Source: Candidatus Thorarchaeota archaeon
GTDB lineage: Archaea > Asgardarchaeota > Thorarchaeia > Thorarchaeales > Thorarchaeaceae
Assembly: GCA_046482545.1 (NCBI GenBank)
Contig: JAWOEX010000032.1
Location: forward strand, 193,903 to 257,902
Direction: 5' to 3'
DNA length: 64,000 nt
Position numbers and translations under genes: made by a program. Positions 3 to 12,922 of the stretch are shown piece by piece. The first letter of the stretch is position 1; each line of letters starts with the position of its first letter. The notes under the pieces are model-generated. The model did no database searches and was not told the origin of the DNA. It worked only from the letters and a program-made list of their open reading frames with translations.

Positions 3-611
3 ACTGCGTTCGAGAGTGTGCTTGAAGGTGACGAGTGGAAATCCACGGATTTCTCCCCATTTCAAGCTGGTTTCAGGAATATCGTAGGTCGTATACCTGC
101 CAAAGTGTGTTTGGCCGGCCATGGTGGTACTGGAAAAACAACTCTTCTTGAGCTTGCTACCCTCCCCTCACGCGGACCTCCACAGGACTACGTACCAACA
201 TTTTTCGGCGATAAAGCCCTTCTAAAGGCCGATTTTGATCCTTATGTGTTCAGTGTGTTTGATCTTGGAGGACAGGACAGATTTGTCCAAGAATGGGGAA
301 AAATAATCCGGGCTGGTAGCATGGTCGTATTGGTTACGGATTCAACTCCCGATAATATGAAATGGACAATGCGAGTAGCATTTCCCGTATTGAAGAACGA
401 GTTGCCTTATGCACGCATGATTGCAATAGCAAACAAGCAGGATTTGAAGGGAGCTCTCTCTCCCCAAGAAGTATCACGGAGACTAGGTGTTCCGGCTTAC
501 GGAATGCAAGCAAATCAACGCGATTTCAGGCAAAGATGGCTTTCTCTTCTCAAGAGTCTTGCCTTTGAAGAGATTGACTTTGCAATAGTTTCGGATGTTA
601 TAACCGAGTAG
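3..611 (+). CDS. Small GTPase, Arf/Rab-like (5'-partial; frame open to window edge)
   Basis: G1 GHGGTGKT, G2 YVPT, G3 DLGGQ, G4 NKQD; no in-frame stop upstream of the annotated GTG at 18. Confidence 0.9.
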   Translation, partial: TAFESVLEGDEWKSTDFSPFQAGFRNIVGRIPAKVCLAGHGGTGKTTLLELATLPSRGPPQDYVPTFFGDKALLKADFDPYVFSVFDLGGQDRFVQEWGKIIRAGSMVVLVTDSTPDNMKWTMRVAFPVLKNELPYARMIAIANKQDLKGALSPQEVSRRLGVPAYGMQANQRDFRQRWLSLLKSLAFEEIDFAIVSDVITE

Positions 612-625
612 GAGACTAGGAAAAC

Positions 626-1183
626 ATGAGCAAGAAAATGAAAAGTGTCATTGATGAAGAAGAGCGCAAGAGGCTAATTGAAGAGATTGGCCGAATGAAA
701 GACACTCTTGATAGCTTCAAGTATGGATTGAACTTTGAAGATTTTGCTGATCAGATTTTCAAAACTGTAAATCGCCAGACAGCAGCCATCAATACACTGG
801 ACCGACGCATGAACGAGATTCTTACAAGGATGGAAAGACTGGAAGAGCGATTTGATGAAGGAATACGCGTTACTGTCTCAGGTGTGTCTGAGGACGAGAT
901 TGGGGATACTGGGGGGAGACCAGAGGTGAAAGTCGAGAAGACTATGACAACAACCTCTCAGGAGGAACCAGAAATCGAGGGGTCTGATGCCGAGCTGAAA
1001 CAGAAGGCAAAAAAGATTGAGACAAAAATTAATCGCCTTTTTGAAAGAGAAAATGCTCTCTCTGAGATGGCTATGAATGATCCAGCTGGTGCTGAGGAAT
1101 ATGAAAAGAAAGCAAGAGTAGCTCGGCAGATGCGCCAAGATTTGGAAGAGAAACTTGATGTAATCAAACAGAAATTAGAATAG
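626..1183 (+). CDS. Hypothetical coiled-coil/helical protein
   Basis: 185-aa E/K/R-rich ORF with heptad segments, GGAG-like RBS, 14 bp after GTPase. Confidence 0.75.
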   Translation: MSKKMKSVIDEEERKRLIEEIGRMKDTLDSFKYGLNFEDFADQIFKTVNRQTAAINTLDRRMNEILTRMERLEERFDEGIRVTVSGVSEDEIGDTGGRPEVKVEKTMTTTSQEEPEIEGSDAELKQKAKKIETKINRLFERENALSEMAMNDPAGAEEYEKKARVARQMRQDLEEKLDVIKQKLE

Positions 1184-1187
1184 TGTA

Positions 1188-1601
1188 ATGGCGGAGATAA
1201 GAATGGGGATTCTTGATTGGTTGAAACGCAAACTCAAGAGAACGGAAAAGAAACCGGAGAAAGGAGAAATACGGAAGAAATCTAAAACAGCTAAGCCAGA
1301 GAAGGTTGAATCCAAAAAAACAGCTACGGATTTTCCCTCTTCGACAGAGGGTGTCTCTGTGGAAAGGCGGGAACAAGTGGGGTCATTAGTTGTTGAATAT
1401 GAGCGCTTGGTTGAGCGACGTCAGCAACTGCAGGCTGAGCGCGGAGAACTAACAGAGAAGCTCGAGCGTGGTGAGCTTTCGTCTACCGAATTTAGGAAAG
1501 CATTGATGTCCAAGATTCAGGAGGCCTCGACCGTCTCAGACAAGATAAAGAAGACTTCATCAAAACTAACAGAACTCGGTTATCGTGGAGTGCTGCGCTG
1601 A
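1188..1601 (+). CDS. Hypothetical protein: N-terminal amphipathic helix plus helical hairpin
   Basis: MGILDWLKRKLKR start, K/E linker, hairpin with LERGELSSTEF turn; operonic spacing. Confidence 0.7.
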   Translation: MAEIRMGILDWLKRKLKRTEKKPEKGEIRKKSKTAKPEKVESKKTATDFPSSTEGVSVERREQVGSLVVEYERLVERRQQLQAERGELTEKLERGELSSTEFRKALMSKIQEASTVSDKIKKTSSKLTELGYRGVLR

Positions 1602-1614
1602 GGGGTGACAGGAA

Positions 1615-3069
1615 TTGGCTGATCGCGATGATGAATCCCCAGAAGACTCGGCAGAAGAAATCGAGAAGAAAACTACGGAACTATTGAAGGGAGCGACGGG
1701 AGAATCCACTTCTTCGAGTGATGAGCGAGATGCAAAACAAACCTTTTCTACTGAGGAAATCTCGCAGGCGACAGATGAATCAGCTGCAGGCCAAGTCGGA
1801 GAAACTTTCGCGCGTATCCAGATTCGTATGGAGGACATACTCGCCTCTGTTGAAGATGCTGCCCAGTCAGTTGAACCTAGTATTGATGAGAAAGTTAGCG
1901 AAGTCCTAGAGATACTTAGCAAGCGTCTAAGGGGCGCAGGATTGGGTGTTTTTGCTACGAGTGCTGTAAGCATAGTCCGCGAAGAAGTTGAGAAAGGATT
2001 GTCGGGATCAGCCACTATGAATCCCATCTACCGTTCGGTTAGCGAAGGGAAGAGCGAGGTCAGGGATATTGTAACGAAAGCGAGCCGTGGAGCGACTCGT
2101 GCTATTGGTCGTTCTACAGGAGAGCTGCAGGGGAAGCTCTTCCAGATGTACACACGAGTTCAAGAGTTAGAAACGAATACTGAAGACTTGAGGGCCCAGA
2201 TTAGGAGATGGAGATCTCGCGCCAATGAATTAGAAGATTTGGCCCAATCAAAAGACGAGTCTCTTAGCCGGTACGAATTGCGCGTTTCTCAGATGAAAGA
2301 GGATCAGGCTGAACTGAATACCAAGCTAGAAGAGAAGGACCAAGAGATTTCTACGTTACGCGGACAGCTCAGTGAGGCGAAATCTCAGATTGAACAGAAA
2401 GACGCCCTTATTGCATCCCTAGATTCCGCGGAAGAGATGGTTGAAGACTATGAAGAGAAAATGAACGAGTTATCAACGATTAAAGGTCAGCTAGCTGAAT
2501 ACGAAGAGACACTTTCTCAGAAGGAAGAACGGATTGAGACTCTTGAGACAGAATTGACAGGTCTTAGAGAAGAAAACGCCAGACTCAATAATACAGTAGA
2601 GAATCTCAGTGAAGAAATCGCCTCTGTGCGTGGCAAGTCAAAAAGCCGGAAATCAGAAGTCGAATCTCTACAAGAACAACTTGAAGAACTCAGGGCTCGC
2701 TGGGAAATGCTCTATCAAGTAGCAGAAGAGGAACCTGACTTCAAAGCCTATTTCCTCATAGCTGACAAGGAGCACACCTGGTTACCCTTGACACATCTAT
2801 CGAAAGCCTTAGGTATTCCCACAGTCAAGCTTCGCCGTGATTTGCAGCGATTTGTCAATGTGGGCCTAATTGAACTGGAAGGGAATAAAGTCAGACCTCG
2901 CAAACTTTCAGAAGTCGCTGAGGAAATTGCTGGAACCAAGAAGAAGGTATTCGAAGACACACAGGAATCCATTATTGGAGATATTTCAGAAGCCAACGAA
3001 GACGAAAATAGCGACGAATCTGTATCATCTAGTAAAGAAGTCACAAGTGACCACACTGAATCATCTTAA
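1615..3069 (+). CDS. Long coiled-coil protein with C-terminal winged-helix domain
   Basis: About 200 aa of heptad repeats followed by LPLTHLSKALGIPTVKLRRDLQRFVNVGLIELEGNKV (wHTH pattern) and an acidic tail. Confidence 0.75.
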   Translation: MADRDDESPEDSAEEIEKKTTELLKGATGESTSSSDERDAKQTFSTEEISQATDESAAGQVGETFARIQIRMEDILASVEDAAQSVEPSIDEKVSEVLEILSKRLRGAGLGVFATSAVSIVREEVEKGLSGSATMNPIYRSVSEGKSEVRDIVTKASRGATRAIGRSTGELQGKLFQMYTRVQELETNTEDLRAQIRRWRSRANELEDLAQSKDESLSRYELRVSQMKEDQAELNTKLEEKDQEISTLRGQLSEAKSQIEQKDALIASLDSAEEMVEDYEEKMNELSTIKGQLAEYEETLSQKEERIETLETELTGLREENARLNNTVENLSEEIASVRGKSKSRKSEVESLQEQLEELRARWEMLYQVAEEEPDFKAYFLIADKEHTWLPLTHLSKALGIPTVKLRRDLQRFVNVGLIELEGNKVRPRKLSEVAEEIAGTKKKVFEDTQESIIGDISEANEDENSDESVSSSKEVTSDHTESS

Positions 3070-3071
3070 CA

Positions 3072-3431
3072 TTGGAGGTGACATCTGATTTGGCCCGAAC
3101 ACTTGAAGAAGTAATGAGATTCCTACAGAATTATACGGTGGCATGGCACCACTGGCTGATACTGCTGTCCCTTCTGAAAACAGGGGGATCAGCTACAAAG
3201 AAACAGATCTTTCCCGTATTCAAGAAGGAGGGGTTTTCTACTCATGCAATCGAAGGCATATTCGAACGAGACTTGGAAGACCTTGGTGAGGCGGTCGAAG
3301 TTCAAGGCGGCATCGATGAGCTCTGCGATAGTAGTATGATTTACCTTACAAATGATAAGAAATTCAGGACTTTCCTCAAGAAGAATCTCAAAACAGTTGT
3401 AAGAATGCTTAAGCAAAGAAAAACGAAATAG
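3072..3431 (+). CDS. Hypothetical protein, possible winged-helix fold
   Basis: 119-aa ORF 2 bp after upstream gene; ILLSLLKTGGSATKKQI resembles a wHTH start. Confidence 0.65.
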   Translation: MEVTSDLARTLEEVMRFLQNYTVAWHHWLILLSLLKTGGSATKKQIFPVFKKEGFSTHAIEGIFERDLEDLGEAVEVQGGIDELCDSSMIYLTNDKKFRTFLKKNLKTVVRMLKQRKTK

Positions 3432-5139: not shown

Positions 5140-5706
5140 ATGGAGAAGAAATCGATGGTAAAGATAGAGTACATAATGGTTTACACTCGGGCAGGGTTAC
5201 CAATCTACAGTAAGTGTTTCGGCAGTTTCTGTAAGACATCCATGAAGGACCCAGAGCTTTTGACTGGTTTCCTATCAGCATTAGAGACAATTCCAACCAC
5301 CATATCCGAAGATTTGACCCTAGATGCTGTAAAGATGGGGCCCACAGATATGCGCTTCACAAAAACCACTCCCGAAGGTCATTCTATAGTTGTTGGCTTG
5401 TCCAAGGACAGAGAGGATGTTGCCCAAAGTGTTTTCGATGCTGTCCAGGAGACCTTGCATCAAGAGCAATTCGCAGATGTTGATTGGACTGCCGTAACTC
5501 GAGGCAATATGAATAGATTTGAAGAAGAGCTTGTGAGATCAAGAATACCGGAAGCGATGCACGAATACGGCGGCTTTGAAGATAAGTGCCCCCTTGAGGA
5601 TCAGTGTCCCATGCATACCAATGCTAAAATGTCTCGTAAACAGAGAATTTGGGGTGCTATCAAGGATAAATATCAGGCGCTGAAGAAAAGAATGGCCGGC
5701 GAGTAA
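5140..5706 (+). CDS. Longin-like domain protein with Cys/His-containing tail
   Basis: IEYIMVYTRAGLPIYS...DPELLTGFLSAL is the typical longin beta1-beta2-alpha1 pattern. Confidence 0.65.
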   Translation: MEKKSMVKIEYIMVYTRAGLPIYSKCFGSFCKTSMKDPELLTGFLSALETIPTTISEDLTLDAVKMGPTDMRFTKTTPEGHSIVVGLSKDREDVAQSVFDAVQETLHQEQFADVDWTAVTRGNMNRFEEELVRSRIPEAMHEYGGFEDKCPLEDQCPMHTNAKMSRKQRIWGAIKDKYQALKKRMAGE

Positions 5707-5724: not shown

Positions 5725-7497
5725 CTACTCTACAGAGAATGCAGTAATTCGATACTGCTCTCCAACGATATTGATGGTCGCTACAAAGGAGTCACCCACA
5801 TCGGCATTGAGCAAAGCATACCACGAGTCCAGGTCCATCCAGTCTTTCGTCCCCTCTATCCATGCATATGTCGAATTGCTTGTACCGAGTACAATATGTG
5901 TATCGCCATCTTGGACGTATTCTGTCTTGTTCACCACAGAGGCTGTCAAGTTGAATATCCCTAGTGATTCTTCTTCGACGGATCCTCCCATGACCTCGAT
6001 ATAGCCTTCCCTTGCCGCTCTAACTAATCCTTCTCCTATTGTTGACCCCCCTGAGTGATGAAGGTATGACTTGGTTTCTTCCGCCGCATCAACCAACGCC
6101 AATGCCTGGAGTCTGATATCAGAAATCTCCCATTCGTCATCATCATAATATCCATCCGCCCAGTAGATTGGGCAATACCAAGCATATCGGGTTTCAGTTT
6201 CATTGATTTCAACCGGATATATCAGAGGCATGGCACCGAAATAATTCCCTGATGATACCTCCGGCAGGCTTTTGATGATTTCATTAACCGCTGCTACTCC
6301 GCTTATGAAACTCTCTTCACGCAAATCGTGCAGAACGATTCCATCAGATGTTGCTCTGAATACACCACTCAAAGTAAGATCAGAGGCACTCGGTGGATTT
6401 ACCGCTACAAAGCCTTCTACTCTACTCGTAGAAGGGTTGACTATATAGCGTGTATCTTCTGTCATTTCCAGCCTATCATTTGACGGTGGTATAGTCCAGA
6501 GGAATCCACCTGCAAACAAATCAAAACCCTCTCCTCGTCTGTAACCTCCCCATCTACCTATCTGTCTCTCAAGCCACTCTTCACTATAAGCTTGGGTGAT
6601 CCAGTCGGGGGTTTCTTCAACCGATGGGTAAGAGACTACTGTACCATTTTCAAAGTAGAGCTTGGGACCCAAGGGTCGTTCCACGAAGTCCCATCCGAGT
6701 ACTGTTCTTGTCTGAATGTACACAAGATCACCGTTCGGCGACCACGTTGGATAGGAGTATTCGAAAGCCTGTGTCATATCGTTAAGATAGTTACCGAATC
6801 GAATAGCCTTGTCCCAGAACAATCCCTCTCCCACAGGAAGGGTGACATCAGTAATAACTTCAACTTCGGATGGGTTGTTGGCATCAACCACTATAAGTGC
6901 CTTAATCTGGTTCTCGGCCAAGACATTCGTAGGAACAACCACGCATACCCATACCAAACGCCCGTCTTTAGTCGTGATATGGGATGCTGAGATCTCAACC
7001 TCTGAACCAATTGTAGCTAGATATTGACTTGCCACAAATCTTGCATATTGGCTTGTCACAAGGCGGACCATGTTATCTGGTATGGGGTCTGAAAACAGGG
7101 GCTCGTCAGTCTCGACAATCAACTCATTGAAGGATTTCGCGTTGGACACATCTGAAGTCCATGAGATGGCTCCAGCAAATGCTGGAGTGACCATGAGAAA
7201 GATGAATGAAGCACAGATGATGGGAGACCTACCCTGTTCAATCATGTACTTGATGTTTTGAGGGCGGAGACCGCTGGAAACCAAGAAGAGAAGGCTAATA
7301 CTTGGAATAAGAAACAGCACTGCCCAAGGTAAGATAAGTTGCAGGAATAAAGTGGCTATTATCCACGCAAAGAAGCCCCATATAACCCGGAGCGGGAGCC
7401 ATCGTATTAGCATACGGAATTGGAACATCTGTCTGCTAAGTGATAGCGGAATTGCATGGACGATTATTGAAATCAGCAAAAAGACCATAATGTTCAT
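5725..7497 (-). CDS. Membrane-anchored hypothetical protein with large beta-rich extracellular domain
   Basis: 590 aa; 3-4 N-terminal hydrophobic segments, then an acidic beta-rich soluble region. Confidence 0.75.
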   Translation of the reverse strand: MNIMVFLLISIIVHAIPLSLSRQMFQFRMLIRWLPLRVIWGFFAWIIATLFLQLILPWAVLFLIPSISLLFLVSSGLRPQNIKYMIEQGRSPIICASFIFLMVTPAFAGAISWTSDVSNAKSFNELIVETDEPLFSDPIPDNMVRLVTSQYARFVASQYLATIGSEVEISASHITTKDGRLVWVCVVVPTNVLAENQIKALIVVDANNPSEVEVITDVTLPVGEGLFWDKAIRFGNYLNDMTQAFEYSYPTWSPNGDLVYIQTRTVLGWDFVERPLGPKLYFENGTVVSYPSVEETPDWITQAYSEEWLERQIGRWGGYRRGEGFDLFAGGFLWTIPPSNDRLEMTEDTRYIVNPSTSRVEGFVAVNPPSASDLTLSGVFRATSDGIVLHDLREESFISGVAAVNEIIKSLPEVSSGNYFGAMPLIYPVEINETETRYAWYCPIYWADGYYDDDEWEISDIRLQALALVDAAEETKSYLHHSGGSTIGEGLVRAAREGYIEVMGGSVEEESLGIFNLTASVVNKTEYVQDGDTHIVLGTSNSTYAWIEGTKDWMDLDSWYALLNADVGDSFVATINIVGEQYRITAFSVE

Positions 7498-10623: not shown

Positions 10624-12922
10624 TTATCGAGAATAATACCTTGACCCTATCATCCTTCTCGAAGCGTTTCCGTATGCTACCGACATTCGGCGAGTGTTGG
10701 TTATGGGTATAGATTTCGCCGTTAACGGAGGTCTCTTGAATACTCCACTCCTCGCTGAAGTAGAAGTAGATCCCCTCTGCATGATTCGTGGCTTTAGAAA
10801 CCACTAAAGTCAGCTCATTTGAGTCAGCGTCCCACTTCTCGCTTTGAATATCACAGGCTCCTTGAGTGAAGTGCATGCTAGTCGCCAATAGAGACGGTCT
10901 ATCTTGTGCTGGCTTTATGCTGTATAGTCTACAGGTATGCGGCTTGAGACTGGACACGCTGATTTTGTCTTCGACTTCTTCGACGTATTTCTCGTCCCAG
11001 AAACCGAATACATGGTGGGAGACTCCTTCTTCAAGGCCAAGATCTGTAAGATACACCTCAAGGTCAATAGGCTCCTCGCCAAGATTGAACAGCCCTACAA
11101 CAACCCACTCGCTGGTTTTGTTTTTAACAGGAAGAAAGAAAATATTGGGTTCTGGTTTAATCAGAGTATCCGGGGATAGGGCTCCCTCTGGATACACTGG
11201 AAGCAGCTTGTCTACAAGTCGAAGCCTCTCTTCGGAGACTTCCATCATCCGGTCGCTTAGAAGGAATGCCCCTCCACTAAGGGCAACAATTGATGCCCAG
11301 AGTCGTACCTCTTCAAGAGAGAGTTCGTTGTCTTCTTGCCGAACTAGCAAGCAGTCAGGATCGTTTATCCACCACCTATTGTGCAAAGGCGCCCTCGTTA
11401 TGGTATTCACAGCGCATTCGTACACCCCGCCACCCCAATCAAGTCTCCAAGATGTGGCAATGTCTGTTCCAATTCGCATCGCATTTGTGATTCCAATGCA
11501 CGGTCCCAGAGGGGCACCGCATCCGAGGATTAGAGAGTCTCCAACACTTTCGCGCACAGCTTCAATTCCGTTTCGGAAAGCTTGAGCACGTGTAACTGTT
11601 TCATCAAATCTTTTTGCTTCTTCTGTGGCATGATAGAGGAAATCAATCTTGAAGTACTCAAATCCTAAGGATTTCAGATGTTTGAACAATGATTTGATAT
11701 GCTTGATTACGGCTGGATTTGAAAGGTCCAGCGCGTAATAGCTCCCAAGCCATAGCGGATTGTCATCGATTACTTTTGGCTCACCTTTCTTGGACGCAAG
11801 AAACCAGTCTGGATGCTGTTTGAAAAGGTCAGAATGCTCTGTAGCAATGAATGGTGCTGTCCAAATGCCTGCTTTGAAGCCTTTCTTCTCAATTTCTTCC
11901 TTCAGATAGTCCAAGCCATTTGGAAACCTATCGTTTGGTTGCCAATCTCCCACTGTTTTCTGGTACCCGTCATCAATTTGAATCCACTTTACGTAATCCG
12001 GGAATCTTTCTTTCAGGAATTGTGTGTTTTCCAGAATCTCCCCCTCTTCTGGCATGGTGTAATAGAAATACCATGAACACCATCCTACGGGTATTTCATC
12101 GCACAAGACGGCATTCATCCGTCTAGCTGCAAGATCAGCATATTCCTGAAGGGATGCCAAGCCATCGGCTTTGATGATGACGACCAGTTCCTCTGAGACA
12201 ACCGCCTCGTCTGGAATCAATAGTGTACTATCGAGCTCACATGTTGCTGCCAGTCTCTCCAGCTGCTGTCTTCCGGCGTCAAATGAGATATTTGTCAGTT
12301 GTCTATCCATTGTACAGAATCCGATAAGGATGTTCGATTTATCGCTCCGATTTGTGAGAACGGAGTAGAAGTGACTGATATTCGACCCTTCTTGTAGTGG
12401 CTGAGCTCGGCTGAGCTCCCAAGAATGAAAACCATTTTGGAAGTATCTTAAATCTAACAAATCCACCCCTGTCAGGATTGTAGAAGATGTCCATAAGGGT
12501 GAAATCGAATCGAGTTCTAAATGCTTGCCAGATTTGTTGATTAGCTGCACCGTGAATGTAAATCCGCTTAGGCCATTAGATGCAATTACTTTGAAGCGCA
12601 CCTCGTGTGACTGGACTGGATCCTGAAGAGAAAGAATGAGTACCCTATCTGCTTGACTCTGATTCTTTATGGTAAGTGTATCCATAGAGACGTATTTGAG
12701 TTGAGAGGAATTGATTATTCTCCCTTTCGTTGATATTTGAAATTGACCTTCTCGTAGATATTCTTCTCCCATGGGATTAAGAAGACTGAATGAACCGTTC
12801 TCTATATCCCATTCGAAAGCCATGTGTTGAGTACTTAGAGAAACCTTATGCTCAGATAAATCGACGCTGCTCCACTTCTCAGGGTCCAAGTGCTCTACTC
12901 CTTCAAACTGTGTTGAATACAC
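10604..12922 (-). CDS. Alpha-galactosidase, glycoside hydrolase family 36
   Basis: GWCSWY, IQIDDGY, FKIDF (nucleophile Asp), MRIG.D (acid/base), NDPDCL. Confidence 0.9.
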   Translation of the reverse strand: MYSTQFEGVEHLDPEKWSSVDLSEHKVSLSTQHMAFEWDIENGSFSLLNPMGEEYLREGQFQISTKGRIINSSQLKYVSMDTLTIKNQSQADRVLILSLQDPVQSHEVRFKVIASNGLSGFTFTVQLINKSGKHLELDSISPLWTSSTILTGVDLLDLRYFQNGFHSWELSRAQPLQEGSNISHFYSVLTNRSDKSNILIGFCTMDRQLTNISFDAGRQQLERLAATCELDSTLLIPDEAVVSEELVVIIKADGLASLQEYADLAARRMNAVLCDEIPVGWCSWYFYYTMPEEGEILENTQFLKERFPDYVKWIQIDDGYQKTVGDWQPNDRFPNGLDYLKEEIEKKGFKAGIWTAPFIATEHSDLFKQHPDWFLASKKGEPKVIDDNPLWLGSYYALDLSNPAVIKHIKSLFKHLKSLGFEYFKIDFLYHATEEAKRFDETVTRAQAFRNGIEAVRESVGDSLILGCGAPLGPCIGITNAMRIGTDIATSWRLDWGGGVYECAVNTITRAPLHNRWWINDPDCLLVRQEDNELSLEEVRLWASIVALSGGAFLLSDRMMEVSEERLRLVDKLLPVYPEGALSPDTLIKPEPNIFFLPVKNKTSEWVVVGLFNLGEEPIDLEVYLTDLGLEEGVSHHVFGFWDEKYVEEVEDKISVSSLKPHTCRLYSIKPAQDRPSLLATSMHFTQGACDIQSEKWDADSNELTLVVSKATNHAEGIYFYFSEEWSIQETSVNGEIYTHNQHSPNVGSIRKRFEKDDRVKVLFSITCFLQL

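Follow-up and report, generated by a model that had tools for sequence, protein, structure and literature searches.

A gene cluster around a longin-Arf-like GTPase in Thorarchaeaceae and its proposed link to a giant surface protein

In NPRL2 and NPRL3, winged-helix (wH) domains lie behind a longin domain, and the Myxococcus GTPase of the MglA-MglB pair works with coiled-coil effectors and surface adhesion complexes. Arf-like GTPases fused to a longin domain are already known in Asgard archaea (PMC4917890, PMC11914678, PMC10933270; Klinger et al., 2016, as cited in PMC4917890), as are longins with a GP motif (PMC12290439) and, in metagenome-assembled genomes (MAGs) of Thorarchaeota, NPRL2-like longin proteins (10.1101/2020.10.19.343400). 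The known longin and roadblock regulators all act as paired platforms that set the nucleotide state of a GTPase (PMC12290439, PMC3747258). The targets of the many small GTPases of Asgard archaea are an open question: PMC4917890 asks whether operons will reveal them, PMC11914678 reports no convincing GTPase-activating protein (GAP) or guanine nucleotide exchange factor (GEF) for Asgard Arf proteins, and in MK-D1, GTPase genes do not as a rule share operons with longin or roadblock genes (PMC10933270). Here, we describe a gene cluster at the edge of a 64,000-nucleotide (nt) stretch of Thorarchaeota DNA (the window; G000:C22:193903-257902, where G000 is the window's genome, a 3.05-Mb assembly, and C22 the contig). 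It comprises five genes, g1 to g5, for a longin-Arf-like GTPase (g1), two small helical proteins (g2 and g3), a long coiled-coil protein (g4) and a small wH protein (g5).

We propose that g1 to g5 make up the downstream half of a longin-regulated GTPase switch with surface-protein-linked coiled-coil accessories, and we put the probability of this reading, including the mechanism set out below, at roughly 0.45. A fetched stretch of the window's own locus that reaches upstream of the window (L001) revealed two further genes on the same strand: up403, encoding a 403-amino-acid (aa) protein with a longin part and two wH domains, and a gene for a 2403-aa surface protein (the giant), whose start overlaps the stop of up403. 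The results point to an association of the coiled-coil genes with this giant, and to up403, outside the window, as the most conserved partner of g1.

An Arf-like GTPase fused to a longin domain

The g1 protein is an intact Arf-like G domain fused to a longin domain. Residues ~125-290 matched the Pfam family Arf (PF00025) at an E-value of 4.9e-12 (46.1 bits for the in-window part, against a cut-off of 22.3), and the top matches in a profile search of the PDB were of the Arf family only (8oun, 6.8e-13; Arf1, 1.7e-11). The G1, G3 and G4 motifs GHGGTGKT, DLGGQ and NKQD were invariant among 15 orthologues. Identity between g1 orthologues was 74-95% across genera, compared with 36-84% for the less conserved partner genes, and 58% in the sister family; public records label these orthologues "ADP-ribosylation factor-like protein" or "GTP-binding protein". 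The original prediction, made by a reader of the window alone, of an Arf/Rab-like GTPase was thus confirmed in its Arf-like form, but the longin domain (the first ~120 aa) could not be seen by that reader. The window edge cuts g1, whose start is 273 nt upstream (Table 1).

Residues 1-123 adopt a longin fold in an AlphaFold2 (AF2) model built from 15 close orthologues. Only the N-domain of this model was used, the G domain being poor (mean predicted local distance difference test score, pLDDT, 59.8); the N-domain itself had moderate pLDDT values of 36-86 per ten-residue block, with residues 31-52 below 50. The order of its strands and helices fits the longin pattern β-β-α-β-β-β-α(-α). Besides VAMP7 (Z-score 13.1; root-mean-square deviation 2.3 Å over 113 residues), the VIA structure search matched the N-domain to SRX of SRα (Z 12.7) and to the longins of Sec22, TRAPP and adaptors, and every chain in the top 50 was a longin or a roadblock protein. 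This longin domain of ~120 aa stands in place of the N-terminal amphipathic membrane-binding helix of Arf proteins, which is absent from g1. As a side observation, one g1 orthologue from a low-coverage MAG (L029) has an in-frame stop at codon 58, where all others have Y; a pseudogene or a sequencing error would account for it.

The likeness to SRX invites the explanation that g1 is a biogenesis helper, a one-chain counterpart of SRX-SRβ in the SRP receptor of eukaryotes, which would together with its partners assist the targeting or export of the neighbouring giant signal-peptide protein. SRX domains were among the best structural matches of the g1 longin (Z 12.7, 12.6, 10.6 and 9.0), the neighbour is indeed a 2403-aa protein with an N-terminal hydrophobic leader, and SRβ has been grouped with the Arf family (10.1101/2024.02.28.582541). 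These SRX matches, however, were tied with those to the VAMP7, Sec22 and TRAPP longins, and the explanation offers no role for the wH proteins. Moreover, SRβ has a membrane span and g1 has none, and a short form of the cluster keeps the core without the giant gene (see below). We therefore consider a biogenesis role very improbable.

Gene order, joint loss and three states in Thorarchaeaceae

The predicted five-gene array with gaps of 14, 4, 13 and 2 nt was borne out: all five are real open reading frames (ORFs) on the plus strand, and motifs resembling Shine-Dalgarno sequences precede the genes behind the short gaps. The true start of g3 is probably at window position 1203 (sixth codon, M6), because all relatives start with MG there and a public record agrees letter for letter; the gap between g2 and g3 would therefore be 19 nt. 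Likewise, g5 probably starts at 3090, behind GGAGGTGA. The tight spacing holds with either choice of the g3 and g5 starts. As for the predicted continuation of the operon upstream of the window, two genes lie there on the same strand, and a spacer of 228 nt (~17 nt in one relative) separates the giant gene from g1. An inverted repeat was sought in this spacer and none was found, and its sequence is not conserved; upstream of up403, the operator-site search gave a single 11-nt palindrome.

Synteny, which the original prediction had named as a check, was conserved: the order giant-g1-g2-g3-g4-g5 is kept in 14 of the 16 Thorarchaeaceae loci first examined, which come from different genera, and partly in the sister family. 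This long form was also found in about 24 of 40 further loci, and up403 precedes the giant gene in long-form loci wherever the fetched stretch reaches far enough. Another 13 of the 40 loci have a short form, up403-g1-g3-g5, with the same flanking genes, and one locus retains g4 without the giant gene and g2. The short form corresponds to three separate deletions (giant, g2 and g4), and it occurs in at least three well-supported places of the g1 tree, forcing at least three changes. Since g4 is present in Atabeyarchaeia as well as in the sister family, and the latter also has g2, the long form is older and the short forms reflect losses. No orthologue of g2, g4 or the giant was found anywhere in the three short-form genomes searched (81-92% complete). 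Orthologues of up403 and g1 are absent from 9 of 27 sampled genomes of the family, where the matches were at the level of paralogues only, and g5 is likewise absent from the three up403/g1-less genomes searched for it. Hence, the cluster exists in three states in Thorarchaeaceae: full, core only (up403-g1-g3-g5) and none. Presence and loss thus follow two units, the core (up403, g1, g3 and g5) and the accessories (giant, g2 and g4), and g2 and g4 were seen only beside a giant gene, except for the one locus that retains g4 by itself.

Contigs from salt-lake metatranscriptomes (two studies, at least 99% identity) cover the cluster from g1 to the start of g5 and bridge the junctions g1|g2, g2|g3 and g3|g4, which fits co-transcription. 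No RNA-library cover was found downstream of L001:15255 or over 11207-11407, which is not evidence of a transcript end. The kept order, the joint loss and the contigs across three junctions together uphold the view that these genes form a functional unit.

Table 1. Coordinates of the cluster genes and of related features (plain numbers are window positions).
Feature	Coordinates	Strand	Description
g1, in-window part	3-611	+	3' part (two thirds) of the gene for the longin-Arf-like GTPase of 293 aa
g1, start	G000:C22:193632		
g1, complete ORF	L001:11730-12611		293 aa
g2	626-1183	+	185-aa acidic helical protein; accessory member
g3	1188-1601	+	132-137-aa basic hairpin protein; core member
g4	1615-3069	+	484-aa acidic coiled-coil protein, wH-like C-terminus; accessory member
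g5	3072-3431	+	113-119-aa winged-helix protein
Giant	L001:4290-11501		2403 aa
Downstream longin/roadblock-like protein	5140-5706	+	188 aa
Downstream membrane-anchored protein	5725-7497	-	590 aa
Homologue of the 590-aa protein	L024:6916-8397		Sister family
Protein between g4 and g5	L024:4420-5952		510 aa; sister family
g1 orthologue with in-frame stop	L029:2792-3670		
Copy of giant end motif	L028:6469-6612		
Paralogous triad	C20:73448-77253		Window's genome
Rab-like GTPase and second longin-GTPase by the module	L071:6132-7935		Atabeyarchaeia
Rab-like GTPase flanking the module	L070:5180-5731		Atabeyarchaeia
Longin + 2×wH protein	L076:7542-8453		303 aa; family f8

The proposed switch, its parts and the rival explanations

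In the mechanism that we propose, the longin domains of up403 and g1 would pair into a platform setting the nucleotide state of g1, as suggested by the way in which the known longin and roadblock regulators work. The g3 protein may fix the complex to an anionic surface, of which the inner side of the membrane is the likeliest candidate. Once loaded with GTP, g1 would engage g2 and g4 to give an elongated scaffold under the membrane, and this scaffold could couple to the acidic tail of the giant via basic surfaces, namely the wH domain of g4, the C-terminal helix of g5 and g3. The scaffold would thereby position, cluster or help to deploy the giant, with the wH domains serving mainly as protein adaptors.

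The up403 protein opens with a start of longin type (LAVLRWDDELGP), a strand followed by (R/K)WD(D/N)xxG(P/T/A), which on sequence is consistent with a longin-type N-terminus. At the place of a GP motif, W26, D27 and G31 are invariant, and the Pro after the Gly is found only in Thorarchaeaceae, with Thr or Ala elsewhere. Searches against Pfam NPR2, folliculin and DENN gave no match to up403 at E-values up to 1, nor to 13 family members at E-values up to 0.05. A GAP role is unsupported, because the longin part (alignment residues 17-130) holds no invariant Arg that could be an arginine finger; the loop reads HLKGL in Thorarchaeaceae and is missing from the other families. With regard to the wH part, the own Pfam matches of up403 were just below the cut-offs (HTH_20, 26.3 bits against 27; HTH_5, 21.1 against 22), members of its family matched TrmB (down to 4e-9), HTH_5 and HTH_20, and the PDB profile search gave ArsR/HlyU structures at 7e-5.

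Such matches would be expected if the wH proteins up403, g4 and g5 bound DNA and changed transcription, with the giant as receptor and the longin domains and g1 as a conservon-like GTPase switch. A further hint in that direction comes from another family, in which a longin + 2×wH protein inside the module matched DUF742 at 26.7 bits (cut-off 27). The cluster, however, is without a histidine kinase, no conserved palindrome or spacer was found upstream of g1, and DNA binding leaves both the ~190-aa coiled coil of g4 and the link of g2 and g4 to the giant unexplained. We regard this explanation as somewhat unlikely; the wH domains of g4 and g5, which bear on it as well, are described below.

The giant has an N-terminal hydrophobic leader, Ig-like and prealbumin-like repeats, many N-x-[ST] sites and one C-terminal membrane span, and ends here in a 291-aa acidic tail carrying an HHH_5 domain (5.6e-12), which can also be counted in favour of DNA binding. 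The tails of the giants, taken as cytoplasmic, are 150-310 aa long and consist of 35-40% Asp+Glu. About half of the giant orthologues were observed to end in K-[KR]-E-L-I-E-x-L-P...L-S-K-K-E-L-E-A-L, and one locus (L028) has a copy of this end motif in a separate stretch after g5.

The g3 protein (pI 9.9) begins with MG-[IL]-[FL]-D-x-W and a polybasic part, continues in a variable linker and ends in a helical hairpin that turns at an invariant Gly, according to an alignment that takes in four sequences from other Asgard families. The Atlas search with g3 returned only hypothetical proteins of Thorarchaeota and generic helical hairpins (template modelling (TM) scores up to 0.5), and SHOCT was dismissed, with 3 of 14 members matching at about 0.01, below threshold. 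The g2 protein (pI 5.0; 14 orthologues aligned) starts with a conserved helical domain, which a variable acidic linker joins to a helix-NDP-helix hairpin at the C-terminus, and no family was above cut-off in profile searches. Six of the 14 g2 orthologues matched the BLOC-1/BORC model Snapin/Pallidin (PF14712; best E-value 8.3e-6). This assignment was rejected as not specific, because the model also fires in 7 of 14 control genomes; the best matches in these genomes were other long coiled-coil proteins. A comparison by hhalign lent no support to a shared ancestry of the g2 and g3 hairpins (probability 3%). The description of g2 and g3 as helical-hairpin proteins relies on the alignments and an outside model of modest quality.

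The g4 protein (pI 4.6; 12 orthologues aligned) begins with an acidic N-terminus and a helical domain with an invariant GLGVF, continues into a coiled-coil-like middle of ~190 aa and a conserved junction, RW..LYQVAE.EP.F.AYF, and ends in a wH-like domain and an acidic tail. The middle matched coiled-coil families only. Matches to SMC/Rad50 (23-43 bits against cut-offs of 300-1000) covered the coiled-coil parts only, without Walker motifs, and were dismissed because coiled-coil composition alone accounts for them. A golgin-type tether was rejected too, as the end domain is wH-like and there is no GTPase-binding GRIP or GRAB end domain. The wH-like domain is basic (pI 9.0) and was recognized through weak matches, to TrmB at 0.14 here and to HVO_A0114 (1.8e-4) and HTH_69 (1.4e-3) in a relative. 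Thus, of the predicted long coiled coil ending in a wH domain, the coiled coil is backed by the matches to coiled-coil families and the wH end only by weak profile matches. The third helix and the wing of this domain are basic, as a DNA-binding role would have it, but the third helix differs between families.

For g5, the AF2 model was confident (mean pLDDT 88.8; predicted template modelling score, pTM, 0.82) and displayed a winged helix, α1-β1-α2-α3-β2-wing-β3, flanked by an additional helix at the N-terminus and a long basic one at the C-terminus. The best 50 VIA matches were all wH domains (Z 6.0-7.9), so that the small wH protein of the original prediction stands; with Z no higher than 7.9, these matches do not single out one wH family. 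The nearest folds include many dimeric ArsR, MarR, HxlR and PadR regulators, which speaks for DNA binding, whereas the third helix and wing of g5 are acidic or neutral rather than basic, which speaks against it. The best Foldseek match was a wH domain at an E-value of 0.065, with nothing at up to 0.001; the sequence-profile search of the PDB gave nothing below 0.16, Pfam and NCBIfam gave no match, and the Atlas search gave only leads under 0.9. The family is tiny, with 12 matches among 1.84 billion representatives, and was seen only in Thorarchaeaceae (21 of 24 genomes searched) and the sister family. Three proteins of 1,658-2,814 aa that matched the g5 profile in repeats were judged spurious, the one inspected being an RTX-like repeat protein. 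A shared origin of the g5 and g4 wH domains was unsupported (hhalign probability 0.2%).

The original prediction had interpreted the genes as a candidate membrane-remodelling or tethering system, with g1 as an Arf/Arl protein on the membrane, g4 as a golgin-like tether and the wH proteins as ESCRT-II-like adaptors. An Arf-like g1, a long coiled-coil-like g4, a hydrophobic and polybasic g3 N-terminus and a g1 longin resembling SNARE, SRX, TRAPP and adaptor longins are all in keeping with this. Yet the longin domain sits where Arf has its membrane-binding helix, no partner matched a GRIP, GRAB, BAR, ESCRT or SNARE family, the Snapin/Pallidin-type matches of g2 failed the control, and a tether does not predict a link to one particular surface protein. 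Tandem wH domains of the EAP30/Vps25 type, looked for as a sign of an ESCRT-II/CdvB-type adaptor, gave no Pfam match and were not among the listed fold matches of g5, which has a single wH domain, and the ORFs read around the cluster included no ESCRT genes. No ESCRT, golgin or SMC feature was found, and we hold a remodelling or tethering machine to be quite unlikely; of the earlier interpretation, the functional unit remains. The accompanying claim that the four partners of g1 lack enzymatic motifs also held, as no enzyme family of Pfam or NCBIfam matched any of them.

Several results weigh against the switch with protein-adaptor wH domains that we favour. The giant cannot be the only target of the core, because the short form keeps the core without it, and the giants of different families are only weakly alike (E-value 2e-5). 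Membrane binding by g3 is only a guess, because the hydrophobic moment of its N-terminus was not above that of shuffled versions (0.03-0.43 of the shuffles reach the actual value). The wH domains of up403 are ordinary ArsR/TrmB-type domains by sequence, the basic third helix and wing of g4 resemble those of DNA binders, and an HHH_5 domain in the giant's tail fits nucleic-acid binding too. Finally, RNA libraries may contain DNA, and a contig over two genes does not establish a single transcript.

Distribution in Asgard archaea and comparison with known systems

Outside Thorarchaeaceae, the pairing of up403 and g1 recurs in at least six further families of Asgard archaea. Genes resembling the two are immediate neighbours in loci of families f13 (Ca. 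Atabeyarchaeum deiterrae included), f15, f8, f19 and f7, and by coordinates they are adjacent in about 25 genomes, f12 included. Behind the GTPase gene comes a g3-like gene in f13, f19 and f7, and a short g4-like one, encoding a coiled coil and a wH domain, in f13 and f8. The most faithful neighbour of g1 is up403, and the next is g3. Giant membrane-anchored proteins are encoded beside the up403-like gene in four families and in three different gene orders: up403-giant-g1 in f1, giant-up403 in f2, giant-up403-g1 in f13, and GTPase-giant-up403 in f9. These results revealed that the up403-g1-g3 core is a small-GTPase switch module widespread in Asgard archaea, to which g5 is added in Thorarchaeaceae and the sister family.

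Related arrangements were also observed elsewhere. The window's genome holds, on another contig (C20), a paralogous triad of a 374-aa longin-wH protein, a 291-aa longin-GTPase and a 231-aa acidic hairpin protein, facing a 319-aa Lys-rich protein on the opposite strand with two helix-hairpin-helix pairs like those of the giant's tail; a looser paralogous pair lies on contig C26. In two Atabeyarchaeia loci (L070 and L071) the module is flanked by a Rab-like GTPase of 181-183 aa, and L071 has an additional 338-aa longin-GTPase with a C-terminal coiled coil. In f8, the longin + 2×wH protein with the DUF742 match lies between g2/g3-like and g4-like genes (L076) and also has a faint match to NPR2 (E-value 0.012). 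Between g4 and g5, the sister family has an inserted gene whose product starts like a longin (GIALCSWNEKEGL) and matched no family.

Downstream of the cluster, the window encodes a protein of 188 aa that opens in a longin/roadblock-like manner (VKIEYIMVYTRAGLPIY), contains two Cys pairs and closes with a basic helix at its C-terminus. Neither Pfam nor NCBIfam matched it, and at least five further loci of the family likewise have it downstream of an acyl-CoA dehydrogenase gene. The following 590-aa membrane-anchored protein, also without a family match, is possibly another neighbour conserved with the module: a 45%-identical homologue adjoins the GTPase cluster in the sister family, where the intervening genes differ.

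With respect to the targets of Asgard small GTPases, the cluster supplies candidates, namely a longin+wH regulator, a small adaptor, two coiled-coil effectors and a giant surface protein as the likely client. The natural states (full, core only and none) predict which proteins bind each other, and the module proteins are small enough, or can be trimmed, for expression, pull-downs, GTPase assays and structure work. A broader conjecture, which we think unlikely, is that Asgard archaea have cargo-dedicated Arf-like GTPase machines, in which a longin-GTPase, a longin+wH regulator and a small membrane adaptor would each time be assigned to one giant, with its own g2/g4 scaffold gripping the tail. 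If true, this would represent a prokaryotic forerunner, at the plasma membrane, of the eukaryotic cargo-coupled systems of GTPase/adaptor traffic.

No description of the cluster, of its split into core and accessories or of the link to giant surface proteins was found in the literature searched, in agreement with the original prediction of an undescribed complex. The cluster belongs to a known kind of longin/roadblock-GTPase module, and its arrangement is new as far as the searched literature shows. Among eukaryotic systems, C9orf72-SMCR8, folliculin-FNIP and the GATOR1 pair NPRL2/NPRL3 resemble it in that up403 has a longin-type start with wH domains behind and is paired with a longin-bearing GTPase; judged from sequence, this make-up fits a longin-longin platform. 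Unlike the GAP-type longins, up403 has no NPR2, folliculin or DENN match and no invariant Arg, and the Pro of the GP motif occurs only in Thorarchaeaceae. The SRα(SRX)-SRβ pair likewise combines a longin with an Arf-family GTPase, the g1 N-domain matches SRX at Z 12.7, and a secreted or membrane giant is encoded beside g1. Here, however, both parts form one chain without a membrane span, and the SRX match is no better than those to other longins. With its Arf-like GTPase beside a long coiled coil and its wH domains as possible protein adaptors, the cluster recalls the Arf/Arl-golgin and ESCRT-II systems, from which it differs in having no GRIP/GRAB or ESCRT-II signal, a single wH domain in g5 and no ESCRT genes nearby.

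Among prokaryotes, MglA-MglB and the conservons of actinobacteria, in which a sensor kinase joins the roadblock, DUF742 wH and GTPase proteins, likewise cluster the gene of a small GTPase with those of a roadblock/longin-fold regulator and a wH protein. In contrast to them, g1 is Arf-like rather than MglA-like and the cluster is without a kinase; the regulator fold is fused to both the GTPase and the wH domains, and DUF742 of the conservons was matched weakly, below the cut-off, and only by the protein of a relative. With regard to the longin-Arf fusions of Asgard archaea themselves, the published papers describe the proteins and not their partners, whereas g1 sits here in a conserved cluster with a longin gene.

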